DNA of 64,000 nt from an uncultured Planctomycetia bacterium (GTDB lineage Bacteria; Planctomycetota; UBA8108; UBA1146). A model generated the notes under the pieces. That model did no database searches, had not been told where the DNA came from, and worked only from the letters and a program-made list of their open reading frames with translations. The stretch lies in assembly GCA_964422295.1 (NCBI GenBank), contig CAYRAM010000002.1, positions 24,052 through 88,051 of the forward strand, written 5' to 3'. Shown here piece after piece: positions 4,934 to 48,213 of the stretch. Both the position numbers and the translations under genes were made by a program. Every line of letters begins with the position of its first letter. Positions within the stretch are counted from its first letter, which is position 1.

Positions 4934-5104
4934 CTTCCTTCTCCTCGGGATCAATCCCGGCGTATGGGTGGGTCTGCAGTGGAAAAGCCACCTGACCCTC
5001 TTGGTAGGCTCCAAGGATATCGTCAGTGGATGGCCCTGTGGACAGATTCTGGAAGGATTCGGCAGGTTTCCCGAATGGCAAATCGGCGCTGGGGGAAGCC
5101 AAAT

Positions 5105-16900: not shown

Positions 16901-16978
16901 CTGGGTCTGTAAACTTCAATAACGATCGGACTTGACTGCGGGGACAGGGACAAGCAGCAAACACGGAAGGAGAGAATC

Positions 16979-20647: not shown

Positions 20648-20759
20648 AAGTCCTCCTCAAGTTCTTGATTCAGGTATTGTTCGACACGCACCAAGCCGGA
20701 TGCCATTCTACCCTCTCGTTGCCCCTACTTCGACTAGCGCAATTCTCCGAGGGAAATCG

Positions 20760-21926
20760 ATGAAGCCAGACAGTTTGACGATACTTGGTGCAGGGATCAT
20801 CGGCCTGTCGGCGGCGAGGGAAGCCCGTTTGCGTGGACTGGAGGTGAAAGTCTTCGATTCGCGCCCGTCAGGATCCGGGTGCAGTTATGCGGCGACCGGT
20901 GTACTGAAGGCTCCCGAGCATCGGAGATCTCCCTACCTGGATCTGCGTCATCGCAGTTGGGAAGAGTGGCCTGGTTTTGCAGAATCGCTGAAACAGGAGA
21001 GTGGCGGCATCGATGTCGGCTTCAGGAATTGTGGAGGGCTCGATCTACGGGATCAGACGACCCGGGATCCCCACCGCGCTGTCGATCAACTCTACGGTTC
21101 CGGTGGTGCAGTGAGGATCTTGGATTCGGATGAGCTGACAACTCTGCTTCCCGCGATGAAGAGAATTCCTCAGGCGGGAGTCTTCATCGAACATCAATCG
21201 GTGGTAGAGCCCTCCAGTTTGATGGCAGCAATGGAAAAGTCTTGCACCACTCTCGGCGTGGAGATTCACACCGATCAGGGAGAGATCGCTTTGCAGTCGC
21301 TGGGGGATGGACTGCGAGTCATCCGCAAAGACGGGGTGGAATTGGCAAAGGTGTGTGATCGTCACCCCGTAGTGTTGTCGGCGGGGTGGGAGACCTCCGT
21401 CCTCGTCGATCCCTTGCGAGAGAGTCCATTGCCCCTGGAGCCCGTGCGGGGGGAAGCGATTTCACTGAATGTTCCTGCTCCTCCCCACATCGTCACCTTC
21501 GATGCACAGTTGAGGAATGTCCCTGACCCGGCGGGGAACCGTAGCCGTTTCTCTTGGATCCCGGGTCCTCAAGGGGATTCCTGGTTCGGTAACAGTGTGG
21601 GTGAGATGGGTGAAGGCCGTGAGCCGTGTCCCCAACCTACAGCGACCGGTCGTGCACGCTTGGTGGAGGCGGCGGAGTCCTTTTTTGGAGACGGAATCGC
21701 CGACAAGATCACCGGTCACTGGGCAGGGCTTCGGCCCAAATCTCTTCGTCACGGCGGCCCCCTCCTGGGTCCCCTCGATGGGGATCGACGGGTGTGGATC
21801 GCCACGGGTCACTACCGCACAGGTTTGCTGATCGGCCCGTTGACCGCCCGCTGGCTGGTTGAGGATTTGCTGGGTGAGGGTGAAATCCCGGAGGCGTTTT
21901 CGATTCCGCAGGCAAAGCGGGATTGA
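20760..21926 (+). CDS. FAD-dependent oxidoreductase of the DAO family, glycine oxidase ThiO-like.
   Basis: An N-terminal Rossmann dinucleotide motif 'ILGAGIIGLSAAREA' is present, along with a C-terminal DAO-family motif 'GLRP...IATGHYRTGLLIGP'. Confidence 0.7.
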   Translation: MKPDSLTILGAGIIGLSAAREARLRGLEVKVFDSRPSGSGCSYAATGVLKAPEHRRSPYLDLRHRSWEEWPGFAESLKQESGGIDVGFRNCGGLDLRDQTTRDPHRAVDQLYGSGGAVRILDSDELTTLLPAMKRIPQAGVFIEHQSVVEPSSLMAAMEKSCTTLGVEIHTDQGEIALQSLGDGLRVIRKDGVELAKVCDRHPVVLSAGWETSVLVDPLRESPLPLEPVRGEAISLNVPAPPHIVTFDAQLRNVPDPAGNRSRFSWIPGPQGDSWFGNSVGEMGEGREPCPQPTATGRARLVEAAESFFGDGIADKITGHWAGLRPKSLRHGGPLLGPLDGDRRVWIATGHYRTGLLIGPLTARWLVEDLLGEGEIPEAFSIPQAKRD

Positions 21927-23119: not shown

Positions 23120-23166
23120 CCTAGAGAAGGACTCATCAATTGAAACAATTTGGTGTCAATTCACTT

Positions 23167-23182
23167 TGTTTGGCTTGCCAAA
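23167..23182. promoter_or_regulatory. Palindromic operator-like site GTTTGGCTTGCCAAAC (copy 1) in the divergent region upstream of the porin-like gene.
   Basis: Perfect 7-2-7 inverted repeat. It is the same motif as at 24540 and 30914. Confidence 0.4.
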
Positions 23183-23277
23183 CAACAGGGGTCAGATTTA
23201 CGCTCTCCCCATCGGCGTCATCCGAGGGTCGCCGGTTTCATTATTTTCAGGACAGGCAGCGAGAGGATCAGCGTTCG

Positions 23278-24417
23278 ATGACGATGCAAAACCTACTGAG
23301 TGGACTTGTTTGCGCACTGATGATCGTGGGAGCTTTCCAAAGTGTCGAAGCGCAGGCAGATCGGAATGACGGCCGCCCTGCTGCCGAAGATGATCGGGAT
23401 ATCCGGGTGGGTGGATACCTCGATCTTGAGTTGTTCATGAATGGAGATCGATTCGATTTCAAGCAGCATCGGTTGGTCCCCATGCTGGATGCCAACATCA
23501 GCGAGAATGTCAGTTTCTCGGCAGAAATCGAGTTTGAGTACGGGGGAGCGAGTGCAGCCCGTGGAGACGGGGAAACCAAGGTGGAGTATGCCTTCGCAGA
23601 TATTGACTTCGATGGCTGGACCCTGAGATCGGGAGCCATCCTGATTCCTCTGGGTTCGACCAATCTCTATCACGATTCTCCGATGCGGCAATTGACCCAG
23701 CGCCCATTTGTTGCAAGAACCATCGTTCCATCGACTCTGACCAGCGCAGGGATGGGGGGAGTCTGGGGAGCCAGTGATGGAACCTGGAATGCGGAAGTTT
23801 ATCTGGTCAACGGGTTTCAGGGGGAGGATGGAGCGGGGGGTTATCTGTTTGATGCCTCCAGTGGAATCCGTGGGGGAAGGCCGAGCCTGAAAACAAATCT
23901 TGGGGATCGTGCTGCGAGTTTTGTTGGCAGATTTGCCTATAGCCCCGCGTTGGGCACCGAAGTCGGTTTCTCGATGTGGAATGGCCCCTGGGATGAAGCA
24001 GGGGATCTGGATTTGGGTATCCAAGTCATCGACATCTCCACAGATCTTGGAACTTGGGCGGACTCCCTGGGGTCGACGATCCTCAATTTTGAAATGGGGC
24101 AGGTTTCCATCGATCGGGATGCTGCGGCGATCGCAGGAGGAGTTCCTGAAACACTGGGCGCCACCTCCCTGGAGATCTCAAAAAGGATGTTCCCTGATTT
24201 TGTCACTCGACTCTGGGGCGAAGATTCCTCCTGCGCATTGACGATACGTTGGGAAGAGGAGGACTTGTCTGGACCGGTCAAGAATCGCATGACTTATGGC
24301 TTCAACATGAGGCCCACCGACGAAACCGTGCTCAAATTCGATTACGAACAGGAATCTGTCGACGGCTCTGAAGATCCGGACGCCACCTTTATCGTCTCCG
24401 CTGCGACCTACTTCTAG
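23278..24417 (+). CDS. Putative outer-membrane beta-barrel porin-like protein.
   Basis: Signal peptide 'LLSGLVCALMIVGAFQSVEA'. The composition alternates hydrophobic and polar residues and is Gly, Asp and Asn rich. It has a C-terminal aromatic end '...SAATYF', typical of an OMP beta-barrel terminal Phe. Confidence 0.45.
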   Translation: MTMQNLLSGLVCALMIVGAFQSVEAQADRNDGRPAAEDDRDIRVGGYLDLELFMNGDRFDFKQHRLVPMLDANISENVSFSAEIEFEYGGASAARGDGETKVEYAFADIDFDGWTLRSGAILIPLGSTNLYHDSPMRQLTQRPFVARTIVPSTLTSAGMGGVWGASDGTWNAEVYLVNGFQGEDGAGGYLFDASSGIRGGRPSLKTNLGDRAASFVGRFAYSPALGTEVGFSMWNGPWDEAGDLDLGIQVIDISTDLGTWADSLGSTILNFEMGQVSIDRDAAAIAGGVPETLGATSLEISKRMFPDFVTRLWGEDSSCALTIRWEEEDLSGPVKNRMTYGFNMRPTDETVLKFDYEQESVDGSEDPDATFIVSAATYF

Positions 24418-24539
24418 GCGGGTTCGACGGCACCTGTAAAGGCATTCAAGGGGCGAATTGACCTCGAATCGCGGTGCTTCAGCCAATTTCAGGGGGGCTG
24501 GAGTAAGAATTCGATCAAAAGCATGGAGTCAAGTCGTTT

Positions 24540-24555
24540 GTTTGGGTTGCCAAAC
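24540..24555. promoter_or_regulatory. Palindromic operator-like site GTTTGGGTTGCCAAAC (copy 2) upstream of the FMN_bind-ApbE / feoB operon.
   Basis: 15 of 16 positions match copy 1. It lies about 80 bp upstream of the ORF at 24633. Confidence 0.4.
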
Positions 24556-24632
24556 GGTACCAATTCGGTTCTATTTGCCTCGGGTTCGCCGATCGGCGCC
24601 CCAAGGATTCATCCCCCCGTGAAAGTTGCTTC

Positions 24633-26270
24633 ATGCGGACCGCATCACACCGTGTCAATTCGACTCACGAACCGTTGTACCCGTGCCGGCTACTTCGGGC
24701 AGGGTCGCAATTGCTATGGGTGAGCATCGTGCTCTTTGCGACTCTGGGGGACACCCGTGCGATGGAATCGATGGTCCCTTCTGAATCGGAACGGAAACCC
24801 GGTGAACTGATTCTCCCCGAGAAGACGTCAGGGAAATTCGATCGAGAAATCCTGCAAGAATTGTGGCCAGGAGAAATCCTCGTCGAAAAGTGTATTGTTC
24901 CAATTGAAGGAGAATTGAAGAGGGCGATCGTTCAGAGATGCAGAGTCAAGACGACGGATCACCTCAGTACGATCTTCAGAATTCGCGATGCCAAGAGTCA
25001 GGAATTGGGACACGTGGTGATTCTTGATGAGATTGGCAAATATCGGCCAATCACCTTTTTTGTTGCCCTCGATGCAAGAGATCATGTCCTCGATCTTCAG
25101 GTATTGGTGTACCGGGAACATATTGGCAAGGAGATTGAGTCTGCACGATTCACACGCCAATTCAGGGATAAACGATCTTCCAGCATCCTGAAATTGCATC
25201 GGGATATCCGCAATTTGTCAGGGGCAACATTGTCGGCTCGCGCTGCAGTTCGAGCGGTGAGAAGAGCCTTGGCCACCGTGGAAGAGGCCGTGCGTGCAGA
25301 CGATGGGCTCCTCTGGCAACGCCATTCGGGACCTGTTCTCACTTACGGAGACCTCGGGGGAGGGGAGCCCTTCTCTGCCTCCGGGATGGAGCCATCGCCT
25401 CCCGCCGAGCAGGAAATCGGCAAGACCTCCGGCAGTACCGTGTCTTTCCGAAACGGTGAAGAGAAATTGATCCAGAGGGCGCGGCCGGCGATGGGAACGA
25501 TCCTGAAAATCGACGTTTTTGGAGATCACGCCCTCGCGGCAGTCGATGCCGCTTTTGCTGAAGTGGAACGCATCGAATCCCTTCACAGCCGTTGGCGACG
25601 CGACAGTGATGTTTGCAAGGTTGAGGCCGCTTCCACCGGGCAAGCCGTCAAAGTTTCTGCTGAGACGATCGAAGTGGTCGAGAGAGCGTTACAAATGTCA
25701 CGGGAGAGTGGCGGCGCTTTCGACCTGACTCTGAAAAAAGACGGATACAAATCGGTCAAGATCGATGCGCACGAGCAAACGATTACTCTGTTGAAGCCTG
25801 AGTTGATCCTCGACCTTGGCGGCATTGGCAAAGGCTATGCCCTCGATAGAGCGGCTGCCATTCTTGAATCTTATGGTTGCTCCAGTGCGCTCCTCGACTT
25901 TGGTGGACAGTTGCTCGCATTGGATCCTCCTCCGGGTGAAGAGGCGTGGCCAGTGGGTATCTTCGACCCACGTGATGGCAGGACGGTCTTGCATCAGTTG
26001 CCTCTGGTGAGGTCATCCCTCGCCACCACGGCGAACTATGAACGAGGAGACCACCTCGTCCATCTCCTCGACAGAGAATCAAGCCACCGTGTTCTGACCA
26101 CGTCAGTCATCTCTGAGAGTGCTACTCAAGCGGACTTGCTCAGTACCACGGTTGCTCTTCTCGATCAGGATCGGGCTCAGATGGTTCTCAACAGTCAGCC
26201 CGGTGCTTCTGCGGTTCTCCTGATTGAAGGAGAGGATGAGCCCAGGTTCATGGGTCGCTCCAAGCGCTGA
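24633..26270 (+). CDS. Membrane-anchored fusion of an FMN-binding domain (flavinylation target) with an ApbE-type FAD:protein FMN transferase.
   Basis: N-terminal TM 'LLWVSIVLFATLG'. The FMN_bind domain carries the flavinylation motif 'DIRNLSGATLSARA'. The C-terminal half has ApbE signatures ('ILDLGGIGKGYALDRAA', 'ALLDFGGQLLAL', 'TSVISESATQADLLSTT'). Confidence 0.7.
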   Translation: MRTASHRVNSTHEPLYPCRLLRAGSQLLWVSIVLFATLGDTRAMESMVPSESERKPGELILPEKTSGKFDREILQELWPGEILVEKCIVPIEGELKRAIVQRCRVKTTDHLSTIFRIRDAKSQELGHVVILDEIGKYRPITFFVALDARDHVLDLQVLVYREHIGKEIESARFTRQFRDKRSSSILKLHRDIRNLSGATLSARAAVRAVRRALATVEEAVRADDGLLWQRHSGPVLTYGDLGGGEPFSASGMEPSPPAEQEIGKTSGSTVSFRNGEEKLIQRARPAMGTILKIDVFGDHALAAVDAAFAEVERIESLHSRWRRDSDVCKVEAASTGQAVKVSAETIEVVERALQMSRESGGAFDLTLKKDGYKSVKIDAHEQTITLLKPELILDLGGIGKGYALDRAAAILESYGCSSALLDFGGQLLALDPPPGEEAWPVGIFDPRDGRTVLHQLPLVRSSLATTANYERGDHLVHLLDRESSHRVLTTSVISESATQADLLSTTVALLDQDRAQMVLNSQPGASAVLLIEGEDEPRFMGRSKR

Positions 26271-26304
26271 TATCAAGGGGACCATCAAACAGGAGGTGGA
26301 GTCG

Positions 26305-28245
26305 ATGAACAGGGAACAGGGCAGAGATACGCTCCGTATCTCCATCGCCGGAAATCCCAATGTCGGCAAATCGACCCTCTTCAATGCCCTCGTTTCGGGG
26401 CGGGCACGAGTTTCCAACTATCCCGGAATCACCGCCGAAGCATTAATCGGCAGAGGGACGTGGGGCGACGTCCAGGTTGAGGTCACCGATCTCCCCGGTT
26501 GTTACGGCATGCAACTCGATCTACCTGAGTCACGGCTCTGTAAAGAACACTTGTCTTCACCGCAAAGACCAGACCTCATCGTCAATTTGATCGATGCGGT
26601 CAGTTTGCGTCGCAACTTGAACATGCTTGCAGAGTGTCTTCAGGAAAATAGTTCTCACATCGTCATGGTGACCCGCACCGATGAGGCCCGACTGAGGGGG
26701 ATCGAGATCGACTTCGACCGCTTCAGCGAGTTGGTCGGCGTGCCGGTGATCGAGTTGGCTCACAGGAGTTCTCACAAGCAAGAACCATTGAAGGAGATAC
26801 TGCTCGAAGCAGCAAACTCTGCTCCTGCAAGGATCGAAGTGGGTGACCCCTCTGAGTGGGGTGACGATGTTGCTGCTGCAGTCACTCGACCCGTCAATCC
26901 CGAAGAAGCCCGCAAGAGGAGAAAGAGGGAGGATCGACTCGATGGTCTTTTGCTGCATCCGATTTGGGGATTGGGATCTTTTCTTCTCATCATGGGATTG
27001 CTTTTTGCCAGCGTATTTTGGTTGGCACAATTTCCCATGGAGTGGCTCGATACTTTCTTTGCGTCAGTCTCGTCGTGGGTGGGATCCAGTATGCCCGAGG
27101 GCGAGGTCAGGGATTTGGTCACGGAGGGAATCATCGGCGGAGTTTCGGGAACGCTGATTTTTCTGCCGCAAGTCTTGCTGCTCTTCTTTCTGATCAGTCT
27201 GCTCGAAGAAACCGGATATTTGGCCAGGGCGGCACTCGTTGCAGACCGCTGGCTGAGACCCTTTGGTTTGCCAGGTCACTCCTTCGTTCCATTGCTCTCC
27301 AGTCATGCCTGTGCCATCCCTGGCATCCTCTGTACCCGGCTCATCCCCGATCGCCGGGACCGATTGGCTGCGATTCTGGTGGCGCCATTCCTCTCATGTT
27401 CAGCGCGGTTGCCGGTATACCAACTCCTGGTGGGATTGCTCTTTCCCGGAAATCCACTCGTCGCAGGAATGGCGTTTGTGGGCTGTTATCTCCTGGGCGC
27501 ATTGGCCGCCATCATGACCGCGTTTCTGGTCCGTCAGTTTTTGCTTCCAGGACGCAGCCCCAATCTCATTCTTGAGCTTCCTCCCTTCCAGAGGCCATCG
27601 ATGTTGGGCTCCCTCCATACCGCTGGGCACCGGGGCTGGCTCTTCATCAAAAATGCGGGAAGCGTCATCCTGTTGATGTGCATCATATTGTGGTGGTTGG
27701 GGAGTTACCCAAAGGTGGGAGAGAGTCCCCAGGTGGTCGATTTACGTGCGCAAGCGGCGGCGACCGCCACAGCAGAGGACGCACTTGCGGTAGGGATGGA
27801 AGCGGATGCTCTTGCCGCAAAAGAGAGTACTTCCGCTTCATACCTGGGACAGATCGGAAAAACAGTGGAGCCGATCTTTGCACCGATCGGTGCCGATTGG
27901 CAATTGTCGATCTCGGTGATGGCGAGTTTTGCGGCTCGGGAAGTGTTCGTATCAGCCACAAGCGTTATTCTCGGCACAGGCGAGGAAGGTGATGCGCAAA
28001 CATTGATGGAGAAGATCGAAAATTCAACAAGAGACGATGGTGCACCCCTTCTGACTCCTTCAGCGGCAGCGGGACTGCTGGTGTTCTTTGTGCTCGCGAT
28101 GCAGTGTCTGCCGACCCTCGCAGTGACCCGCAAGGAGGCGGGTGGATGGAAGTGGGCATTACTGCAATTCTTGTGGATGAGTGTCCTTGCTTGGAGCTTG
28201 GCAGCATTGACCCGGGGTATTCTCAAGTTTTCAGGAGTGGAATAA
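26305..28245 (+). CDS. feoB: Ferrous iron transport protein B.
   Basis: G-domain 'ISIAGNPNVGKSTLFNALVSG', 'DLPGCY' and 'NLID' motifs, followed by the polytopic membrane domain. The ATG at 26305 is preceded by AGGAGGTGGA. Confidence 0.9.
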   Translation: MNREQGRDTLRISIAGNPNVGKSTLFNALVSGRARVSNYPGITAEALIGRGTWGDVQVEVTDLPGCYGMQLDLPESRLCKEHLSSPQRPDLIVNLIDAVSLRRNLNMLAECLQENSSHIVMVTRTDEARLRGIEIDFDRFSELVGVPVIELAHRSSHKQEPLKEILLEAANSAPARIEVGDPSEWGDDVAAAVTRPVNPEEARKRRKREDRLDGLLLHPIWGLGSFLLIMGLLFASVFWLAQFPMEWLDTFFASVSSWVGSSMPEGEVRDLVTEGIIGGVSGTLIFLPQVLLLFFLISLLEETGYLARAALVADRWLRPFGLPGHSFVPLLSSHACAIPGILCTRLIPDRRDRLAAILVAPFLSCSARLPVYQLLVGLLFPGNPLVAGMAFVGCYLLGALAAIMTAFLVRQFLLPGRSPNLILELPPFQRPSMLGSLHTAGHRGWLFIKNAGSVILLMCIILWWLGSYPKVGESPQVVDLRAQAAATATAEDALAVGMEADALAAKESTSASYLGQIGKTVEPIFAPIGADWQLSISVMASFAAREVFVSATSVILGTGEEGDAQTLMEKIENSTRDDGAPLLTPSAAAGLLVFFVLAMQCLPTLAVTRKEAGGWKWALLQFLWMSVLAWSLAALTRGILKFSGVE

Positions 28246-28250
28246 TCACA

Positions 28251-28367
28251 GTGACCTTCGATGATCCGCAGTTCATATTTGTGACGCTATTGGCCATTGT
28301 TGCAGTGGTAGTTCTCTTATGGAGACGGGGTGGTGGTTCATCCGACGATTGCGGTTCCTGCTCTTAA
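28251..28367 (+). CDS. FeoB-associated Cys-rich small membrane protein (tentative).
   Basis: About 38 aa immediately after feoB: one TM 'FIFVTLLAIVAVVVLLW' followed by 'RRGGGSSDDCGSCS'. GTG start with a modest RBS. Confidence 0.35.
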   Translation: MTFDDPQFIFVTLLAIVAVVVLLWRRGGGSSDDCGSCS

Positions 28368-28464
28368 TGAAACGTGATTCCTCGCGGTCGTATGGTATCG
28401 TATCCGTGGTCAGGTTGCCCCGAGGGGCCTGATCTCAGCAAGTTGATATTGAGAAAGGAATCCC

Positions 28465-29619
28465 ATGCTTCCAATTAGGTTAGTGAATCTCGCCTTTGCC
28501 CTGTTGTTACTGGGCACTGCGGCGTTGATTGCAGCGCCTCCTGATTCTGCAGACAAAATCGATCAGAAGCAGGAAGAGGAGGCAAAAAAGGCTTTTGATT
28601 CCATCTACGAAAAGATGAATGAAGCACAAGATGCTTACTACAAGCCCTTCATCGATGCCCGGGAGAAGGGATTGAGCCCGGAGGAAATGGACAAAATCGA
28701 ACTCGATCCGGAACTTGAGCCGGTCAAAATCGTGGGTCCGGAACTGTTGCGTGGAATCGAGAAATTTGCCGGGACTGAGGCCGCACTCCAGGCTTGTGAC
28801 CGGCTGATGGGGATGGCAGGCAGAAGCGATACCCAGGGGTGGATGGTCGAAAAGGTAGTCGCTGTTCTCAAAGCCCATTATCTCAAGAATCCAAACTTGT
28901 TGAATGTGGTACGCTTCGCCCATTACGGCAGTGACGCTCCGGTGATGAAGGAGTTCCTCGGTACAGTGGTGAGTGAGTCCCCCCATAGGGAGGTACAGGC
29001 CGCAAGCTGCTACTCGCTGGCAAAGATGCTGGGCAAGAAAGAGGAAACCCGGGGTGAAGGTTTGGCGATGCTGAAAAAGGTGCAAACCGACTTTGGGGAT
29101 GTCCCATACAGGGGGGATCGTGTCTATGCGGACAAGGTCAAGGGCGACCTCTTCGAAATGGAAAATCTGCAAATCGGATGCGTGGCACCGGAAATCATCG
29201 GCAAAGAGATCTCAGGAAGTTTAATGCAGCTTTCTGCCTTCAGGGGCAAAGTGGTGCTACTCGATTTCTGGGGAGACTGGTGAGGACCTTGCAGGGCGAT
29301 GTACCCACACGAGCGGTCGCTCGTAGAAAAATACTCAGCAGATACATTTGCCATCGTCGGCATTAATTCCGACTCCACGATTGAAAAAGCCAGGGAAGTG
29401 GTCAAAGAGAACAAACTCAACTGGCTCAACTTCTACGATGGAGGCACCGATGGTCCCATTGCGACGCGGTGGAATGTCAGTGGTTGGCCAACGATCTACC
29501 TCATCGATGCCAAAGGAGTGATTCGATTCAAGGATGTTCGTGGCAAGAAGTTGGATGCGGCCATCGAGGTGCTGTTGAATGAAACGAAAGCTGAAAAAGC
29601 AGTAGAGGCTGGCAAGTAG
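28465..29619 (+). CDS. Selenocysteine-containing TlpA-like thiol:disulfide oxidoreductase with a U-G-P-C active site. The TGA at 29281-29283 is read as Sec.
   Basis: ORF 28465..29283 ends '...GKVVLLDFWGDW', then TGA. Reading on in the same frame gives 'GPCRAMYPHERSLVEKYSADTFAIVGINSDSTIEKAREVVKENKLNWLNFYDGG...GWPTIYLIDAKGVI' (ORF 29299..29619 is in the same frame). This reproduces the TlpA consensus 'FWASWCGPCR', with Sec at the first Cys. Signal peptide at the N-terminus. Confidence 0.7.
29309..29324 (+). promoter_or_regulatory. Candidate SECIS apical hairpin with a GGUC loop, 25 nt downstream of UGA 29281.
   Basis: acgagc-GGUC-gcucgu: a 6-bp stem with the loop GGUC, the same apical-loop sequence as the E. 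coli fdhF SECIS. A lower helix is possible with the 5' flank. Confidence 0.35.
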
Positions 29620-29647
29620 TTTTCGCATCTTCGAATCGCGATCAGGT

Positions 29648-30334
29648 TTATCCTGGAGATTCTTCTTTCGAAGAATCTCCAGGATTTTTTTCGTCGGTTC
29701 CAAAACCCATTGGGCACCCACCTGAGGAGGATTTCTCATCTGAGTTCTTTTTAGGAAACAGGGGAGCTTGGGGTGGAGGGTCAGCTTCGCCTTTTCCACG
29801 CCTGCGAAGTGGTGCCCACCACAGTTCATCGAGACAAGCCAAAGAACCGAGTGAGAGTGTCAGCAGCAGGAGTGATCCACCGAGAATTTGGGAAAAGAGA
29901 GCCAGGGTACTCCCCGAGGCGATCATCAAAGGCGAAAAGAGAAGCCCTGCCAGGCTGCCATATCCCGTAAACGCGAGGGTGACCTTGATGGAGGTCGACC
30001 AGGGAGTCAGTTCAAAGAGATGGAGGATGACGAAGAGGAGCATCGCCAAAGAAAAGATGTGATCGTGGATGAATGCGAGCAATTCACGGGGTGTCTTCTC
30101 TGACATCATTTCTTCCGCATCGAGATCGTTCTCATTGCCGAGAACCCATTCACGGGCATTTTCAGGTGTAAATCCTCCCGCACTGCTGGAGTATTGGAGA
30201 GTTGCCACAAAGCACCCTCCAATGACCGATAGCAGAAAGAGTGTCAGCAGCCAGCGAGTGGAGGTGTTTGCTCGGGCGAGAGTGAAACCGGCCTGTTTGT
30301 AGAACTGGGTCAAGTCAGCGCTCCCCATCCTCAC
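29648..30334 (-). CDS. Hypothetical polytopic membrane protein.
   Basis: About 5 predicted TM helices. No family was recognised. The 3' end overlaps the terminator hairpin. Confidence 0.4.
   Translation of the reverse strand: MRMGSADLTQFYKQAGFTLARANTSTRWLLTLFLLSVIGGCFVATLQYSSSAGGFTPENAREWVLGNENDLDAEEMMSEKTPRELLAFIHDHIFSLAMLLFVILHLFELTPWSTSIKVTLAFTGYGSLAGLLFSPLMIASGSTLALFSQILGGSLLLLTLSLGSLACLDELWWAPLRRRGKGEADPPPQAPLFPKKNSDEKSSSGGCPMGFGTDEKNPGDSSKEESPG
29653..29693. terminator. Rho-independent terminator after the selenoprotein gene.
   Basis: cctggagattcttctttcgaagaatctccagg followed by attttttt. Confidence 0.55.
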
Positions 30335-30389
30335 GATGACAGATGACTTTGATTTTGGTCAGGACTGATAGGCTCAATGAGAATGCCGC

Positions 30390-30623
30390 TCAGCAATTCA
30401 GAGGAACAACTCTCAGTGTCGCTGCGATGTCTTCGCTGAGTCCCAGCCGTTGGCCTTTGATCTCAAGGACACAGGTACCGGAGTTGTGACAAACACGCAG
30501 TTCACAATCGTCACACAATCCCATCGATTCAAGGAGAGGGCGTTGATCGTGGGGAATCGATTCGGCGATGAGTCTACCGCTTTCACCCTGCTGCATATCG
30601 AAGAGTGAACGCATGCGGGACAT
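30390..30623 (-). CDS. feoA: FeoA-family small protein.
   Basis: An SH3-like FeoA pattern 'LFDMQQGESGRLIAESIPHDQRPLLESMGLCDDCELRVCHNSGTCVLEIKGQRLGLSEDIAATLRVV'. The start was taken at the internal ATG (MSRMRSL). Confidence 0.55.
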   Translation of the reverse strand: MSRMRSLFDMQQGESGRLIAESIPHDQRPLLESMGLCDDCELRVCHNSGTCVLEIKGQRLGLSEDIAATLRVVPLNC

Positions 30624-30913
30624 CGTCTCGTTGGCTGCGGCTTCAAGGTTTGAGGCCCCGGAAGCGGGTGTGGGCTGGGAATGAGGGTAATAAGGTGATT
30701 CTTGATCGGCCTTCATGACTCTCCAGCAAAGGTGACTTCAGGTACTACCAACAGTGTCCGCCTCGACACAGAAACACCCATCGCTGCCGAAAGGTATCTT
30801 CCCTGATCGGATAGGAGACTTGTTATCGAAGGGGAGCGGCATTAACCTGCCCTCCGGTTTACAAAGTCGCCCAAGAGAGTAGTTGTACCGGTTGTTTAAG
30901 GAACCGTCAACCT

Positions 30914-30929
30914 GTTTGGGTAGCCAAAC
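30914..30929. promoter_or_regulatory. Palindromic operator-like site GTTTGGGTAGCCAAAC (copy 3) in the divergent feoA / DtxR-family promoter region.
   Basis: 14 of 16 positions match copy 1. It sits just upstream of the predicted regulator start, consistent with autoregulation. Confidence 0.4.
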
Positions 30930-30942
30930 GAATGGGGTCTCA

Positions 30943-31503
30943 TTGATTGATTGGCGTGAGTTTGACCAGAATCCGGTGAGCCACTCCGCTGCCCACCACC
31001 TGACTTCGATTCAGCAGTTGCTGGATGAGCAGGGGTACGCGCGCGTCTCAGATGTTGCCCGCAAACTGGGGATCACCCGGGGGAGTGTCTCGGTGACCCT
31101 GAAAGGTCTGAGGCAACGGGGTCTCGTGATCGAGGATCAGCACAAACATCTGGGACTCTCGGATGAGGGGCTGAGAATTGCCCGTGGGATTCACACAAAG
31201 AGGATCCTCTTCAAGGCATTTCTCCAGGACTCCTTGGGTCTGCCTGCTGAGTTGGCAGAGTTGGACGCTTGCAAGGTGGAACATCTGGTGAGCGATGTGA
31301 CTGCGGAGGCTTTGGCAATCTATATGGAGCGTAATGGAATCGGCGAGGGTGCTTCCAAAGACCGCAAGGAACAAGTAAAGGCATTGGAAGTCAGTATCAA
31401 AGATGGTCGCATCGATGCTTTCCCTGGTGAAGATGTTGAGGCATTTTCAGAACAGTTGCAAAGCAGGAGTGATGCGGGAAGCAAGGGGCAAACAGATGAG
31501 TAG
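30943..31503 (+). CDS. DtxR/MntR-family metal-dependent transcriptional regulator.
   Basis: 'HHLTSIQQLLDEQGYARVSDVARKLGITRGSVSVTLKGLRQRGLV' matches the DtxR winged-HTH, followed by a dimerisation/metal-binding region. The start is uncertain (TTG 30943 or GTG 30976). The ORF track starts at 30883, but that would place the palindrome inside the ORF. Confidence 0.7.
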   Translation: MIDWREFDQNPVSHSAAHHLTSIQQLLDEQGYARVSDVARKLGITRGSVSVTLKGLRQRGLVIEDQHKHLGLSDEGLRIARGIHTKRILFKAFLQDSLGLPAELAELDACKVEHLVSDVTAEALAIYMERNGIGEGASKDRKEQVKALEVSIKDGRIDAFPGEDVEAFSEQLQSRSDAGSKGQTDE

Positions 31504-31945
31504 TTATTCCCGTGAAGACGCTTTGCGTCGTTTGAATGAGTTGTTGGCCGAAGAGTTGGAAGCATCGATCCGTTACTTGCATTTGAGTACACTCGTGCAG
31601 GGCATCGACCGACTGGTGATTCAAAAAGTTCTTCAAGAGAATCACGAGGAGACGATTGAGCATGCGCAACAGGTTTCAGAAAAGATCATTCAGGTCGGTG
31701 GAGTACCACAACCGAAAATCAATCTGGAGTTGACCGGGAACAAGTGCACCGGGATCGAAGCTCTTCAGATCGCACTGCTCTTTGAGCAGGCTGCCTTGGA
31801 CGCTTACGGAGAATTTCTTGAAGTAGTCGAGGGCAGCGGGGATGTGATCCTCGAAGAATTCGCTCGTCAACAAGTGGCAATCGAATCGGAGCATGTCTCA
31901 GAATTGCAAATGCTCATAGGAGATACCACCGTTGGCAGCAAGTGA
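31496..31945 (+). CDS. Ferritin-like diiron-carboxylate protein (bacterioferritin/Dps-like).
   Basis: Ferroxidase-type motifs 'EELEASIRYLH', 'ENHEETIEHAQ' and 'ESEHVSEL'. It is about 149 aa. Its ATG overlaps the regulator stop, so it forms an operon with the DtxR-family gene. Confidence 0.6.
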   Translation: MSSYSREDALRRLNELLAEELEASIRYLHLSTLVQGIDRLVIQKVLQENHEETIEHAQQVSEKIIQVGGVPQPKINLELTGNKCTGIEALQIALLFEQAALDAYGEFLEVVEGSGDVILEEFARQQVAIESEHVSELQMLIGDTTVGSK

Positions 31946-32420
31946 TCGTCCAGGTGGACTGACGGCACTGACAGTGCTCAATGGCTTCTTTGCTCTCAAT
32001 GTCGGCGGGACGACGATCCAGCGCTTCATCACCTCCTATGAGCTTATGAATGTCGCCGAATCAGGTGTTCAGGGGAGCCCCTGGCGCAGGAGATATCTTC
32101 AATCCCTCCTGGATGAAGGTCTCAGTGCATGGGAGCTGCAAGTTATCGCACTCATAGGTTTGGCTGCCACATTGCTCTTGCTGGTTTCGATTTGGGGATT
32201 GCTGAAACGCAGTAACCTGATTGGGAGGTGGCTTGGCACCCTGGGAGCAGTATCTCTCGCAATCTTTTACCTGCTCAACATCAATTGGCTTCCCGAGACG
32301 ATTTTACGGGGAAGCGGTTTGTCGATCGCACGCCAACTCTTTTATCCTGTTTTTCTGATCTTCATGCTCCATGTGATCTTCCGCAGGGACTTTCTGTTTC
32401 AACCGGGGAGGTCCGGATGA
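31932..32420 (+). CDS. Hypothetical small membrane protein (start uncertain).
   Basis: Hydrophobic segments are present. Its stop overlaps the ATG of the downstream permease (ATGA). A TTG start overlaps the ferritin-like gene. An alternative start is the ATG at 32046. Confidence 0.3.
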   Translation: MAASDRPGGLTALTVLNGFFALNVGGTTIQRFITSYELMNVAESGVQGSPWRRRYLQSLLDEGLSAWELQVIALIGLAATLLLLVSIWGLLKRSNLIGRWLGTLGAVSLAIFYLLNINWLPETILRGSGLSIARQLFYPVFLIFMLHVIFRRDFLFQPGRSG

Positions 32421-33325
32421 GTCAGGCAAGGCACATCCTGCTACACGCCAAGAAGTTGATCGTCCATTCCCTGCGAACCGGGTCCGGGGTGGCTTTCATT
32501 TTTCTGACGATTCTTATTGGTCTCTCTTTGGCCAATTTGTCGATTGCCCCCGTGGAATTGGAATTGACCACCGCCGATGCGTTCAGGGAAAATGCCAGCC
32601 AGGCGATCGGTATCGCTCTCGCCACCGCTACTCTGCGTTTGGGAGCAGACGATCAGGATTTTCTATCGCGTATGGAGACAGGGGATTTGATCGATCTGGG
32701 GATGTGGGCACGATTCCTCGTGATCGAAAATCCGATGTTACTGTCAATCACAGTTCTTTTATTGGGACTGGCCTTGCCGATTCTGTTGCCACTGGGATCC
32801 TTTACTGCCATCTCCAGCGATGTCCAACACAGGACAGTACGCTATCTTCTTCCCAGAACCACGCGCTATTCCTTATTGCTGGGGCGCTGGTTGGGAACCC
32901 TGATTTTGTCGTGGGTGTTGATTTTTCTGCTCTTGTCATCGGTCGTCTTTTATCTGTCGATCATGATCACGACAGAATCCACTGAATCGATGATTCCATG
33001 GGCGGCCCGGTGCCTGCTGGCGCTCTGTTGCCTATCGATGCCTTACGTGTCATTGGGGATCCTGTGTTCGGCGACATTCAGGGTACCGATGGTTGCGCTG
33101 CTGGCCGCAGTGGGAGTCACTGTGGGGGTTCCACTCCTCGCTCTCAGTCTGCAAGAGGCGTGGGAACCTTTGGGAAAGATTCTCTACATTCTTCCATGGG
33201 GATATTCCCATGAGTTGCTCTCACCGGATGCAGGCAAAGTCAGTCGCGCTGTTCTCTATTCATTGGGACACAGTGCCCTCTTCATGACTCTGGCGGCGTG
33301 GAAATTCAGGAGGGCGGATCTATGA
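32417..33325 (+). CDS. ABC-2 type transporter permease.
   Basis: Six hydrophobic helices. The ATG at 32417 is preceded by GGGAGG. It is translationally coupled to the ATPase (ATGA overlap). Confidence 0.6.
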   Translation: MSQARHILLHAKKLIVHSLRTGSGVAFIFLTILIGLSLANLSIAPVELELTTADAFRENASQAIGIALATATLRLGADDQDFLSRMETGDLIDLGMWARFLVIENPMLLSITVLLLGLALPILLPLGSFTAISSDVQHRTVRYLLPRTTRYSLLLGRWLGTLILSWVLIFLLLSSVVFYLSIMITTESTESMIPWAARCLLALCCLSMPYVSLGILCSATFRVPMVALLAAVGVTVGVPLLALSLQEAWEPLGKILYILPWGYSHELLSPDAGKVSRAVLYSLGHSALFMTLAAWKFRRADL

Positions 33326-34284
33326 ACAGCCCACCTGAAGCAGCAATTGAAAATGCGATCCGCATCGAGGGATTGAGTCACAACTTTGGAATCAAGCAGG
33401 CTCTGCGAAACATCGATTGGCAACTTCCCGGTAAGGGAGTCGTTGGCTTGGTTGGGCCCAATGGAGCGGGAAAGACGACGCTGTTCTCGCTCATCGCAGG
33501 ATTTCTGACACTCCAAAAGGGCAAGATATCTGTGCTTGGTCAATCGAGTCCGGTGTCTCCTGCACTCATGGGTCGGGTGGGGGTGATGCCCCAGGATGCC
33601 ATCTTTGCGAGAGACATCTCGATACTGGATCAATTGCTGTTCCTGTTGCGTCTCGAAGGGATTCACGGAAAAGAGGCGGAATCCAGGGCACGAACGGTGA
33701 TGCAGCAGGTGGGTCTTGAAACAGAACTTCACCGTGGTGCGGCGGTACTCTCCCACGGGATGGGAAAGAGATTGGGTGTTGCCCAATCGATCCTTGGCAG
33801 TCCTGAAGTGGTTCTTCTCGATGAACCCACTGCAGGGCTTGATCCTGCCAATGCGCGACAGATCAGAGGATTGATACGGGAGTTGGGCAGTCGGTCGTTG
33901 GTCATCGTTTCATCGCACAATTTGCTGGAGTTGCAGGATCTCATCGACGAGGTGGGGGTCATCGTCAACGGAGAGTTGGTTGCCAGTGGAACGGTGGAGG
34001 AGGTCACTCGTAGAGAACGGCGATTCGAGCTGATCCTTGACACGGAAGTGACTCCGGAATTGGTTGTGGAATTGAAGAAACTGTCACAGGTGAGCAGCGT
34101 CGAATTCGATGGGTATCAACTGACGGTCGATCTCGATGCTGAGAGTGAGGAGGGGATCAATGGTGCTCTATCCCAGTTATATCTCTTCCTCGTTGAGCAC
34201 GGGGTTCCACCCCATGAATTGCGCGAAGGTGCGAGCTTGGAGCAGGCGTACCTGAGACTCACCGGCGAGGATCAATCGCCCTGA
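33322..34284 (+). CDS. ABC transporter ATP-binding protein.
   Basis: Walker A 'GPNGAGKTT', signature 'LSHGMGKRLGVAQ', Walker B 'VVLLDEPTAGLD' and H-loop 'SSHNL'. Confidence 0.85.
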   Translation: MNSPPEAAIENAIRIEGLSHNFGIKQALRNIDWQLPGKGVVGLVGPNGAGKTTLFSLIAGFLTLQKGKISVLGQSSPVSPALMGRVGVMPQDAIFARDISILDQLLFLLRLEGIHGKEAESRARTVMQQVGLETELHRGAAVLSHGMGKRLGVAQSILGSPEVVLLDEPTAGLDPANARQIRGLIRELGSRSLVIVSSHNLLELQDLIDEVGVIVNGELVASGTVEEVTRRERRFELILDTEVTPELVVELKKLSQVSSVEFDGYQLTVDLDAESEEGINGALSQLYLFLVEHGVPPHELREGASLEQAYLRLTGEDQSP

Positions 34285-36197
34285 GATCCCTGCGGCGAGT
34301 TGTTGGGGATTCCCCCGGTGGACCTGACAGTCGCAATCCTCGTGCGCATCTCGATGACTTCAGCACTGGGTGGAGCTGAGTCGAGCAACCGATCGATATC
34401 GTCGAGCAATCCGGGGTTCAAACCGATCCACGGGATTAATGCTTCGAGATGTCTTGCCGCCGCAAAGTGATTGCCTGCCTGAATCGATGCGGTGGCCTGT
34501 TTCTGACCCAGCAACCCACGCAAGGTTACCAACGGTGTCAAGAGTCCCCAACGTTCTCTGGAGGTGTCCAGCCACTCAGAAAGGGTGCGTGGACCATCCT
34601 GCTTCTCGATCAGTTGGCCAAATCTCAGCAGCAGGTCATGACTTGGTTGCGCTGATTCCGTCAATGCGATACTCCACCACTCTTTGGCGGCATCCAAATC
34701 TCCCGAGACCGCACACATGTAGCCCAATCTCTCCTCCAGACGGGTCCCTTTTGGTTCGAAGAGTGCCCAGCCTCCCCGATGGATGCCGAGTTGTGGTTTG
34801 AGGGCAGCGATGGCGTTGACGGAAGCACGTCTGATTTCTTCGGGTACCGGCGGTTTCCCGGGCAATAGCACCTGATCGAGGTTGACGGCGGCTTGATCCA
34901 TCCAGTGGGATGATTGCTGCAGATCCCAACGGGATTTTCCGGCTGAAATCGTCAGCCCGATGCAGAAGATGGCGATGACGAAGACTCCTGCTCCTGCGCG
35001 TGTCCAATTCCCTCCCCGTCGCAGTGAATATTGTTGCAGTGAGACTTCCCGATCGCGAAGCAACTGAGTCGCTTTCCAAGCAAGAAAGGTCACCATCAAG
35101 GCGATCCCCGTTGCCATCAACAGCGGGATCTGCTCGTAGACGCCACGCCAACTGAACCAGGTGAGAGTGAATACCGCTGCGATGAGCAACTCTCCGATCC
35201 AGGAGAGTTGTGACCGACGACGAATCCTGGTTGATGCCGGGTTGAATGCGGTGACAAGGCTCTGTTTGTTGACACCGAGGGAAAGCACTCCATTCGGACA
35301 AACATCCACGCAGTCGAGGCACTTCATGCATCCCGGGTCGACCACCTGTTGATGAACCTTGATCTCCCGGGAAATTTGCACATTGGAGGTGCAGTTCGCA
35401 GTGCATAGACCACAGGATTCACATTTGGACATGTCGGCGACGATCCCCATGAGGGAGACTCGATCAGCGATATTGAAGAACGCACCGTAGGGGCATCCGT
35501 AAGTGCAAAATCCCTTGGAGCCGAGGAGATACACCACGAAAAATCCGCAGATCAGAAGAAAGGGAATCGCCACGATGACGGTTGGGAAGGTCGCCCAAAA
35601 TTCTTCGACGATGAGGTGGTTGGTGAATCCCGGCCACGCTTTGGCGGGAGCAAACCAATTCGTCAGTCCAGGCACCACGGATTCCACCCAGGGGAAGACT
35701 ATCCGTTTGAAGGTGGGCCACAGAAACATGTAGAACGCAAGGATGAAGGGGACTGCGGCGAGCAGCCTGCTGCGGAAGGGTCGTGGCGTGATTCCCGCCT
35801 TTTTCATCAGCCAACCGCAAAGATCCTGCAAAGCCACCATATGGCAGGCCCAACCGCAGAACCAGCGACCGAAAATGGCGGTCGCCAAAATGGCAACAAT
35901 GAAAAAGACGAAGCCGGCATTCACCTGTCCGTTTTCGAGGGTGTACATACTTTCGGATGGCTCGACAGGGGAGAGGGTTCTGCCCGTGATCCACCAGTGC
36001 AACAGGTGCCCTGCGATGAGGACATGGACGAGACCGAGAGCCAAGGCCCGACGGCGTCCAGAGCGCCCCGGATATCGTTCGCCTGTACGGCGATCTTCTT
36101 CACAACCGGGTTTTGGCTTGGATCGCTTCGGCACCGATGTTCTCCCTCTTCTGAATTCATCATACCGAATTGACCCGATATCGAGAATGGTGATCAC
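34272..36197 (-). CDS. Membrane-bound polyferredoxin (CcoG/NapH/RdxA-like 4Fe-4S protein) with a C-terminal helical-repeat domain.
   Basis: Cys clusters 'FCGWACHMVAL', 'CTYGCPYGAFFNI', 'CESCGLCTANC' and 'CMKCLDCVDVCPNG', with several TM helices. Confidence 0.6.
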   Translation of the reverse strand: MITILDIGSIRYDEFRRGRTSVPKRSKPKPGCEEDRRTGERYPGRSGRRRALALGLVHVLIAGHLLHWWITGRTLSPVEPSESMYTLENGQVNAGFVFFIVAILATAIFGRWFCGWACHMVALQDLCGWLMKKAGITPRPFRSRLLAAVPFILAFYMFLWPTFKRIVFPWVESVVPGLTNWFAPAKAWPGFTNHLIVEEFWATFPTVIVAIPFLLICGFFVVYLLGSKGFCTYGCPYGAFFNIADRVSLMGIVADMSKCESCGLCTANCTSNVQISREIKVHQQVVDPGCMKCLDCVDVCPNGVLSLGVNKQSLVTAFNPASTRIRRRSQLSWIGELLIAAVFTLTWFSWRGVYEQIPLLMATGIALMVTFLAWKATQLLRDREVSLQQYSLRRGGNWTRAGAGVFVIAIFCIGLTISAGKSRWDLQQSSHWMDQAAVNLDQVLLPGKPPVPEEIRRASVNAIAALKPQLGIHRGGWALFEPKGTRLEERLGYMCAVSGDLDAAKEWWSIALTESAQPSHDLLLRFGQLIEKQDGPRTLSEWLDTSRERWGLLTPLVTLRGLLGQKQATASIQAGNHFAAARHLEALIPWIGLNPGLLDDIDRLLDSAPPSAEVIEMRTRIATVRSTGGIPNNSPQGSQGD

Positions 36198-36300
36198 ATC
36201 GATTCATGCCCAGTCGTAGTTTTCCTTGCAGACCGCAATAAAAACGGAGGGTGGACCATACAGATCCACCCTCCGTTTTTGAAGTTCAAGATTTCAATGA

Positions 36301-37308
36301 TTAGTGATCAGGAACGCCATCTCCGTCGTGATCATGATTTCCTTCGGAGTGGTCCAGATTGATGATCGCTTGCTCGATCATCTTTTTGCCTTGGGGGTTT
36401 TCGGCAACGAGGGGATCAGCGAGCATGCGCTCAAGAAACTTGCGAGCCTCAGGCTTGCGATCCTGCTCAGTGAGCCACTGTTGACAGAACCAGAGGGCAT
36501 TTAGCGTATCGGGCCCGGAAATCCCCGGATTTTCGCTCAGAAATGCTACCAGCGTCGGATAATTGGGTTCGCTGGTGTTCAGCAATTCTCTCAGGCGCAT
36601 GCTCGCCTTGTGAGATGCGACCAATTTTTTCAACTCCTCGTTCTCTGACTTTTCCGCCATCTCCAGGTACTTGGAGTAACCGGGGTAGCCGAGAAGTTCA
36701 TTTTTGGTCATGACCCCAAAGACATCGCTGAGCATGGTCGAAGCTTCTTCATCTTTGGAGGAGAGGAGCTTTTTCAGTTTTTCACCATCGGTGCGCAACT
36801 CGGTGAGATTCTTGAGGTAAGCTTCCGGACCTCCTGGAAGGTAGCCGGTTCTCCCGTAGGGGCGCATCTCTGCATCGGCGAGAATGATGGTGGGGTAGCC
36901 GCTGACACTCATTTCATCGCGGTGCTTGTCATTCAATTCCGGGGAAACCACTTTGGCTTTCAGTTCTTCCGCCTGGGGGAAATCCAGAAACAGGTAGATG
37001 AACTGCTTTCCTGCAGACTCATCAAATCCGGGTTTGGAAAAGACCTCACTGTCGAGTTTCTTGCACCAACTGCACCAGTCACTGCCGGTGAAATTGATCA
37101 TGATGTCTTTTCCTTCAGTCTTGGCCTTCTTCATGGCTGCGGAAATATCCGTCTCCCACGTGAGGCCTGGATGCTCAGCAGTGTCAGTCTGCTCCTCACC
37201 GGAGGATTCTTCCTTTTTTCCAGCGGGTTCCTCTTGTGCGGGAATGTATGGTGCAGCGAAGAGTGTCAAAACAAATAATATCAGGGCCCCGATCAGCGGC
37301 GACTTCAT
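36301..37308 (-). CDS. Secreted thioredoxin-like protein of the Thioredoxin_7 / DUF255-like family with a CxxC.
   Basis: Signal peptide 'LIGALILFVLTLFAAP' and active site 'INFTGSDWCSWCKKLDSEVF'. It is a paralog of the Sec protein at 16979. Confidence 0.7.
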   Translation of the reverse strand: MKSPLIGALILFVLTLFAAPYIPAQEEPAGKKEESSGEEQTDTAEHPGLTWETDISAAMKKAKTEGKDIMINFTGSDWCSWCKKLDSEVFSKPGFDESAGKQFIYLFLDFPQAEELKAKVVSPELNDKHRDEMSVSGYPTIILADAEMRPYGRTGYLPGGPEAYLKNLTELRTDGEKLKKLLSSKDEEASTMLSDVFGVMTKNELLGYPGYSKYLEMAEKSENEELKKLVASHKASMRLRELLNTSEPNYPTLVAFLSENPGISGPDTLNALWFCQQWLTEQDRKPEARKFLERMLADPLVAENPQGKKMIEQAIINLDHSEGNHDHDGDGVPDH

Positions 37309-46621: not shown

Positions 46622-46670
46622 TGATTTTCCCGCCATCGAAGTGGCGGGTGCATTGAAACCGAGGTATTCG

Positions 46671-48212: not shown

Positions 48213-48213
48213 G

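Follow-up and report, generated by a model that had tools for sequence, protein, structure and literature searches.

A predicted TlpA-like selenoprotein with a helical N-terminal domain, encoded next to feoB in an uncultured planctomycete

In a 64-kb stretch of DNA from an uncultured Planctomycetia bacterium (contig CAYRAM010000002.1; this whole stretch is referred to below as the window), positions 28465-29619 of the plus strand are best explained as a single gene, the product of which would begin with a signal-like segment, continue through a helical-repeat domain, and end in a thioredoxin fold of the TlpA/ResA type. Within the CxxC motif of this fold, the attacking residue would be selenocysteine (Sec; U in the motif DFWGDW-U-GPC-R), encoded by an in-frame TGA at 29281-29283. 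In the mechanism that we propose, a hairpin at 29309-29324 most likely recruits SelB and Sec-tRNA(Sec), the UGA would be decoded as Sec, and the enzyme would carry out thiol/selenol–disulfide exchange outside the cytoplasm. We estimate the probability of this overall explanation (one gene, an exported UxxC selenoprotein, and recoding guided by a Sec insertion sequence [SECIS]) at roughly 0.85, and recoding of the UGA at 29281-29283, most probably as Sec, appears very likely.

The complete coding sequence (28465-29619, plus strand) comprises 384 residues with Sec as residue 273 and ends at a TAG codon (29617-29619), as supported by translation, by Pfam domains that run across the TGA, and by 34 loci in other genomes. 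A Shine–Dalgarno-like AAGGA (28455-28459, plus strand) lies 5 nt 5′ of the ATG at 28465, as read from the sequence, and a terminator-like 16-bp hairpin with a T run (29650-29691, plus strand) lies 31 nt 3′ of the TAG stop; a scan of the stretch from the TGA (29281) to the stop codon (29617) found no terminator-like site. Up to the TGA, the reading frame (28465-29283) encodes 272 aa with the C-terminal end GKVVLLDFWGDW (...LLDFWGDW). After the TGA, the same frame reads GPCRAMYPHERSLV... up to the TAG, with stretches that can also be given as GPCRAMYPHERSLVEKYSADTFAIVGINSD...GWPTIYLIDAKGVI... and GPCRAMYPHERSLVEKYSADTFAIVGINSD...NVSGWPTIYLIDAKGVIRFKD..., and the mechanically called ORF 29299-29619 begins at a Met six codons past the TGA. 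The TGA is the first codon of a U-G-P-C redox motif (29281-29292), and the five codons for G-P-C-R-A (29284-29298, plus strand) link it to the next ATG. An earlier, sequence-only reading of this DNA had described a W-U-G-P-C-R motif with the TGA at this position and a frame that continues beyond it; its coordinates and sequence statements all hold, and translation to the TAG confirms the continuation. Since TGA is the ordinary stop of many genes in the window, such as 10780-12105 (ending at 12103) and 20700-21926, the genome uses the standard genetic code, and recoding would be specific to the site.

When Cys was put at the TGA position, Pfam searches of the fused protein identified a TlpA/ResA/DsbE-like thioredoxin-fold domain with the TGA inside it (29173-29544, plus strand; residues 237-360). 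This region is covered, across the TGA, by Thioredoxin_8 (61.9 bits; cut-off 27), AhpC-TSA (59.8 bits; cut-off 26), and Redoxin (53 bits; cut-off 26.6), with E values from 7.6e-17 to 4e-14. The closest solved structures are those of periplasmic thiol–disulfide oxidoreductases of the TlpA/ResA/DsbE type (2lrn, 3gl3, ResA 4nmu/1st9, and TlpA 1jfu; E values from 7e-17 to 5e-12). In the alignment with these, the TGA takes the position of the first Cys of WCxPC. In 3gl3, it falls on the first Cys of WCGPC, the residue that Sec would replace. A G-W-P-T sequence (29482-29493, plus strand), read from the sequence and aligned with GFP and GMPT in the structural relatives, would form the cis-proline loop that characterizes the active sites of thioredoxin-fold proteins. 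Judged by these domain matches, the predicted protein is a member of the TlpA-like thioredoxin-fold family (cd02966).

The TGA codon recurs in relatives. A search of 5.8 billion proteins gave 19 best homologs of 271–277 aa (41–73% identity), all from metagenome-assembled genomes (MAGs) of Planctomycetota, and every one of them ends in DFWG[DN]W. The DNA of relatives, drawn from 185,579 species genomes, provided 44 loci. TGA occupies the same codon in 34 of these, mostly from Planctomycetota, and is followed each time by an intact in-frame thioredoxin domain with no further stops. These 34 assemblies, which are 38–73% identical, show no frameshifts downstream and keep both the frame and the zero-nucleotide spacing. 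Seven more distant homologs have TGC or TGT at the Sec codon, and homologs with Cys are single full-length proteins with the same architecture (e.g., ...DFWGDWCGPCRAMYPHERSLVKRL... and ...DFWGDWCGPCRAMYPHERSLV...). Among the 21 orthologous loci, conservation is higher downstream of the TGA than upstream of it (e.g., 68–77% versus 40–46%, or 68% versus 43% for the locus L013), with 67–93% identity in the post-TGA domain. The sequence-only reading had named close relatives as the place where its prediction might fail; no frameshift or extra stop was found among them, and the comparison that it called for gave the pattern of a kept TGA, with Cys codons in distant homologs. On this comparative evidence, the occurrence of an in-frame TGA within a conserved domain is far beyond what chance would be expected to produce.

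The codons next to the TGA are informative about how it is read. At positions +1 to +5, the amino acids G-P-C-R-A are kept in 25–27 of the 27 unique sequences, and two to four synonymous codons are used per position; the Met six codons past the TGA is kept in 27 of 27. Because the amino acids of G-P-C-R-A are kept while their synonymous codons vary, these codons are translated in frame, that is, by read-through and not by re-initiation. As judged from these comparisons, the codon at 29281-29283 is translated and equivalent to Cys in homologs. Separately, one metagenomic contig (L048:1001-2122, protein P0080) has CGA (Arg) in place of the TGA, reading DFWGDW-R-GPCR, with the hairpin intact, which points to either a point mutation that inactivates the gene or a sequencing variant.

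We used the N-terminal helical domain in an exhaustive HMMER search against 1.84 billion cluster representatives (50%-identity clusters), which gave 152 clusters at E ≤ 1e-3. Among the 150 clusters listed, 128 end exactly in FWGxW, and only three continue as FW..WCxxC. The tail after the helical domain is exactly 36 residues long in 102 of 110 scorable cases. By this sequence survey, the family within HMMER reach of the N-terminal domain is overwhelmingly of the type that stops at the Sec codon, with the stop confirmed as TGA in the 34 genome loci only and the FWGxW clusters seen as protein ends. In public annotation, the gene calls on related contigs describe two adjacent genes (277 and 106 aa), which splits the selenoprotein, and the NCBI records of relatives are truncated "hypothetical proteins."

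Two alternative explanations deny that the TGA lies inside one functional reading frame. In one, the TGA is a true stop, and the locus encodes a 272-residue helical protein followed by a 106-residue thioredoxin-like protein that starts at the ATG at 29299. The public gene calls, with their 277-aa and 106-aa neighbors, fit such an arrangement, as does the invariance of the Met that corresponds to this ATG in 27 of 27 sequences. However, G-P-C-R-A would then lie between the two genes, where its conservation despite synonymous variation is not expected; the thioredoxin fold would be cut, so that the resolving Cys would belong to a different chain from strand 1 (VVLLDFW) and the nucleophile; and the Cys homologs are single full-length proteins, with frame and zero-nucleotide spacing preserved in 34 of 34 loci. 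We consider a split gene highly improbable. The other explanation is a pseudogene, or a sequencing error, in a TlpA-like gene of the Cys type. A single window by itself cannot exclude an error, and the CGA in L048 means that the codon can mutate, but the TGA is present in 34 independent assemblies, the sequence downstream of it is intact and better conserved than that upstream, and 128 of the 150 listed protein clusters stop exactly there. This explanation is effectively refuted.

If the TGA is recoded as Sec, a SECIS is expected 3′ of it. The candidate is the hairpin ACGAGC-GGUC-GCUCGU (29309-29324, plus strand; loop GGUC at 29315-29318), which was identified by folding, by comparison with bSECIS criteria, and by the invariance of its synonymous sites. 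Its 5′ end lies 25 nt downstream of the UGA, and 31 nt separate the UGA from the loop. The bSECIS criteria describe a loop of 3–9 nt with a G in its first two positions, a stem of 4–16 bp, a UGA-to-loop distance of 16–37 nt, and a folding energy (dG) of at most −7.5 kcal/mol (PMC13188914). The window hairpin lies within all four constraints (loop GGUC with GG first, 6 bp, 31 nt, dG −7.9). Folding thus confirmed the hairpin and its loop as described in the sequence-only reading, which had also remarked that the hairpin is further from the UGA than usual; the 25 nt given there are correct but not disqualifying, since the loop spacing of 31 nt falls inside the accepted range. In relatives, the hairpin has 7 bp (equivalent to 29308-29325) and a dG of −10.5; the window has GTA for GTG, which leaves a C·A mismatch at the base of the stem.

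Taken by itself, this agreement with the criteria is weak evidence; the weight comes from comparison across relatives, in which the codons that form the hairpin are frozen. Those for H-E-R-S-L at +9 to +13 (CAC GAG CGG TCG CTC) are each represented by a single codon in 27 of 27 unique Sec-form sequences. Arg, Ser, and Leu can each be encoded in six ways, and of 23 further conserved degenerate codons located up to 30 codons away in either direction, 22 use two to six codons; the invariant Arg at −13 uses all six, and the Ser at −16 uses five. Each of 21 loci shares 17 of the 18 hairpin nucleotides with the window, and third positions of conserved fourfold or sixfold degenerate residues outside the hairpin are on average 43% identical to the window. 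The 18-nt SECIS-like block is frozen across lineages in which synonymous sites are otherwise near saturation. Five Cys-form homologs encode an identical HERSLV peptide. Three of these (L046, L047, and L050) each differ at three synonymous sites and have lost the hairpin, and the other two (L045 and L049), which are close relatives of each other, still carry it. Where the block is present, a single-sequence scan ranked the hairpin best in every locus. Judged from synonymous sites, the candidate hairpin appears to be under constraint at the RNA level only where the TGA is present. These data strengthen what had been a tentative SECIS assignment, because the hairpin lies within the bSECIS constraints and its codons are frozen in Sec forms and have drifted in most of the Cys forms, and we regard the hairpin at 29309-29324 as probably being the SECIS.

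Some homologs differ in this region. The two Cys forms L045 (1001-2113) and L049 (1001-2119) have TGC at the Sec position and retain the full 18-nt hairpin CACGAGCGGTCGCTCGTG; they are plausibly recent Sec-to-Cys conversions with a "fossil SECIS." The GGUC hairpin is missing from two distant Sec forms, L029 and L031. Each has another hairpin 38 nt downstream of the UGA, with the sequence AGGCGCU-CGUGA-AGCGCCU in the former and AGACGCU-CGUGA-AGCGUCU in the latter; a single compensatory change from G-C to A-U distinguishes the two.

Several observations weigh against the selenoprotein interpretation or parts of it. The dG of −7.9 barely passes the −7.5 threshold, because GTA replaces GTG in the window, and folding z-scores for 29281-29340 and 29270-29370 relative to shuffled sequences (0.04 and 0.06) are no better than chance, so that we do not count the folding energy as evidence. 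Simple SECIS criteria are passed by 13 of 180 (approximately 7%) in-frame TGAs with long open flanks in the window. Rfam contains no SECIS family that matches the whole window at gathering thresholds or 29200-29450 at E ≤ 10, the sole match in these searches being a chance snoRNA on the opposite strand. In the fold-and-model check suggested in the sequence-only reading, the hairpin folds, with an unremarkable energy and no Rfam SECIS match. RNAalifold with 24 sequences recovered the hairpin with zero compensatory changes, since a stem that never varies cannot covary; it returned two other short helices only, neither with compensatory changes, and the lower stems that it suggested are unsupported. 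Cys forms conserve the HERSLV peptide as well, so that the nucleotide conservation is partly a constraint at the protein level. A strict scan gave no simple hairpin in five distant Sec forms, including Armatimonas MAGs (L024, L027, L028, L030, and L033). Neither the 64-kb window, where Pfam searches covered approximately 40 genes, nor the fetched flanks contained selA, selB, or selD. Finally, everything that speaks for a role in iron homeostasis, discussed below, comes from the gene neighborhood. As to other decoding components, ARAGORN found no tRNA-Sec in the window or the 34 loci, and the EF-G gene at 2849-5014 is an ordinary EF-G.

With these points in mind, two further alternatives accept that the codon is translated. 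The UGA could be recoded to a residue other than Sec; for example, Cys could be supplied by a tRNA(Cys) that resembles tRNA-Sec and works with a SelB-like factor, or Trp or Cys could be inserted by near-cognate read-through. Systems that recode by way of tRNA(Cys) have been described in a few bacteria, and the absence of Sec machinery from the window and fetched flanks would fit them. The pairing of Sec and Cys at a catalytic CxxC together with a bSECIS-type hairpin is nevertheless the classical signature of Sec, and the window shows no general reassignment of TGA; complete sets of Sec-insertion genes are documented in several Planctomycetes (PMC4807772). We judge such recoding very unlikely, and we infer Sec as the inserted residue and binding of SelB by the hairpin. 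It is also conceivable, though unlikely, that the 18-nt block is not a SECIS and reflects codon preference, another RNA- or protein-binding site, or a constraint on the peptide, with the real SECIS located elsewhere. The lack of covariation and of an Rfam match, the unremarkable energy, the conservation of HERSLV in Cys forms, and the two Cys forms that keep the block are compatible with this idea. Against it, the synonymous invariance is confined exactly to the hairpin codons, the block has been lost from three of five Cys forms through synonymous changes alone, and the position and loop fit the bSECIS model; moreover, the RNAalifold alternatives lack compensatory changes, and the hairpin is top-ranked wherever the block is present.

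The window contains two further candidates for Sec-encoding genes. The first is a TlpA/Redoxin-like gene (10780-12105, plus strand) with an in-frame TGA at 11794-11796 in the sequence LVAFWGYS-U-GICRAESPH. Its N-terminal domain is unlike that of the selenoprotein at 28465-29619, the Pfam domains AhpC-TSA and Redoxin span the TGA, and a canonical SECIS-like hairpin (GUGCGGA-GUC-UCCGCAC; dG −9.9) follows 17 nt after the UGA. The second is a thioredoxin-fold gene (~16913-17563, plus strand; the start codon is approximate) with an in-frame TGA at 17066-17068 in PVLVILEAPG-U-LGCKRLD, which probably encodes a further selenoprotein. Its UxxC site resembles FTGSDWCSWCKKLD of the Cys-containing Thioredoxin_7 paralog at 36301-37308, and a hairpin CUGGAUGC-CGUGAC-GUAUCCAG (dG −10.2) lies 23 nt after the UGA. 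With two further thioredoxin-fold UxxC genes that combine a TGA with a SECIS-like hairpin, the genome appears to use Sec repeatedly. Other TGAs in contexts that look like CxxU or UxxC, at 994-996, 7517-7519 (minus strand), and 17579-17581 (minus strand), are probably due to chance, as the extended frames overlap other genes; the last of these is the ordinary stop of a 1022-aa gene.

Upstream of the thioredoxin fold, the selenoprotein begins with a signal-peptide-like sequence, MLPIRLVNLAFALLLLGTAALIAAPP (28465-28542, plus strand; residues 1-26, as read from the sequence), which has no lipobox cysteine. We infer from this hydrophobic, signal-like N-terminus that the protein is exported and acts outside the cytoplasm. 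A structure model covering residues 1-272, that is, the part upstream of the TGA, has a helix at residues 3-17, followed by a low-confidence linker and an all-α helical-repeat domain (28564-29166, plus strand; residues ~34-234) with a mean pLDDT of 89 for residues 34-234. The structural neighbors of this domain are generic TPR, HEAT, and designed repeats, and searches of Pfam and NCBIfam returned no family match for it. A function of the helical domain as a docking surface is plausible. For the selenoprotein as a whole, no specific NCBIfam family model reaches its cut-off.

The gene lies in a neighborhood devoted to iron. Directly 5′ of it is feoB, encoding a ferrous iron transporter (26224-28245, plus strand; Pfam FeoB_N, Gate, and FeoB_C), which is itself preceded by a gene for a fusion of an FMN-binding domain and an ApbE flavin transferase (24633-26270, plus strand; Pfam and NCBIfam). 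On the 3′ side, Pfam identified a convergent gene for a membrane protein of the Aq_1264_TM type (29648-30334, minus strand), feoA (30390-30716, minus strand), and a gene for a DtxR-type iron repressor (30883-31503, plus strand), and a ferritin-like gene (~31529-31990) lies 3′ of the repressor gene. The selenoprotein gene is found directly 3′ of feoB and on the same strand in 21 of 21 orthologous loci, and the FMN-binding/ApbE fusion is present in 15 of the 21. Synteny with feoB, feoA, the DtxR-type repressor gene, and the ferritin-like gene extends to all 21 loci, most of which also have an upstream porin; the downstream side further comprises the membrane protein and an ABC system. The Pfam-annotated gene calls of L051 include Ferritin and Aq_1264_TM.

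The conserved iron-homeostasis locus as a whole spans 23140-34284 in the window, has counterparts in L002-L021, and also includes genes for a porin, a 365-aa unknown protein, and an ABC ATPase. Adjacent to it (34272-37308, minus strand), a NapH-like polyferredoxin membrane protein (641 aa; Fer4_5) adjoins a secreted Thioredoxin_7/DsbH-like protein (335 aa; WCSWC), and the two may form another extracytoplasmic electron-transfer pair near the iron locus. Further away (42538-54876, plus strand) lie eight consecutive genes on the same strand; seven encode proteins with Amidohydro_1 or Amidohydro_3 C-terminal domains, and the first (42538-43869) is without a Pfam match.

Links between such proteins and iron uptake have precedents. 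Comparative genomics has connected extracytoplasmic thioredoxin-like and flavinylated proteins with iron-assimilation clusters (PMC8238504), and Campylobacter needs two periplasmic thioredoxins, FetE and FetF, together in order to grow when iron is limiting (PMC10783030). From the gene neighborhood, it is conceivable that the selenoprotein is a thiol/selenol redox component of a Feo-centered iron-uptake module, a role that we propose tentatively and at odds somewhat below even. FetE and FetF of Campylobacter jejuni and the thioredoxin-like proteins of P19/FTR1 clusters share with the present protein a thioredoxin fold and a place inside iron-uptake clusters (PMC10783030, PMC8238504). In contrast to the protein described here, FetE and FetF are associated with the transporter FetMP/P19 rather than FeoB, have Cys active sites, and lack a helical N-terminal domain, so that the likeness amounts to a common fold and neighborhood.

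Sec-containing proteins of this general kind are known. A TlpA-like (cd02966) or thiol–disulfide isomerase-like UxxC family was reported from the Sargasso Sea in 2005 (PMC1088965) and in the GOS survey of 2008 (PMC2398784), and it is listed in a 2026 review table of prokaryotic selenoproteins (PMC13188914); searching the BSepDB and deep-Sep papers for Planctomycetes and TlpA gave nothing. With the marine UxxC selenoproteins (TlpA-like, Prx-like, and Trx-like), the present protein shares the thioredoxin fold, Sec as the first residue of UxxC, the existence of Cys homologs, and a marine origin. It differs from them in having an extra helical N-terminal domain of ~200 residues, in its fixed position by feoB, and in that, within HMMER reach of this domain, Sec forms far outnumber Cys forms. 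TlpA of Bradyrhizobium, ResA of Bacillus subtilis, and DsbE/CcmG are similar in fold, in their W-C-x-P-C-type site and cis-Pro loop, and in working outside the cytoplasm, as predicted for the present protein, but they have Cys instead of Sec and are anchored single-domain proteins of cytochrome maturation, a context that was not found in the window. An orthologous relationship with these proteins was rejected, as NCBIfam scores were far below the cut-offs (62 versus 230 for TlpA, 70 versus 170 for ResA, and 52 versus 123 for DsbE). The ResA-like WAxxUGC selenoprotein (NF041054) was rejected likewise, as the score was 34 bits (cut-off 300) and the protein has WGDW-U-GPC, a UxxC motif, where that family has UGC.

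With respect to the hairpin, the closest known likeness is to the SECIS of enterobacterial fdhF, which is also a hairpin in the coding region 3′ of the UGA and has the same GGUC apical loop (PMC4489274), as the sequence-only reading had pointed out. The likeness does not extend further: the fdhF loop begins 18 nt from the UGA, on a stem with a bulged U (PMC4489274), whereas the hairpin here has a spacing of 31 nt and a perfect, bulge-free stem of 6–7 bp. A SECIS of the fdhF type in its details is therefore ruled out.

Although Sec in the CxxC of a TlpA-like fold is of a known kind, the dominance of Sec forms, the frozen 18-nt block, and the fixed linkage to feoB go beyond a routine case. Annotation pipelines appear to miss a sizeable selenoprotein family systematically. 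That the gene at 28465-29619 is the founding member of a large family that is dominated by Sec forms, has escaped annotation so far, and combines a helical-repeat domain with a U-G-P-C TlpA-like domain, with its orthologs fixed in the Feo locus of one marine Planctomycetota clade, is a possibility that we regard as doubtful at present. Taken together, the Sec dominance, the frozen block, and the feoB linkage lead to a testable hypothesis, namely that selenium use is tied to iron uptake in marine Planctomycetota. If this is true, iron acquisition would depend on selenium for a redox step outside the cytoplasm, which could keep Fe(II) or transporter thiols reduced or could reduce Fe(III) together with the flavinylated protein, and the selenium and iron economies of these organisms would be linked in the ocean.

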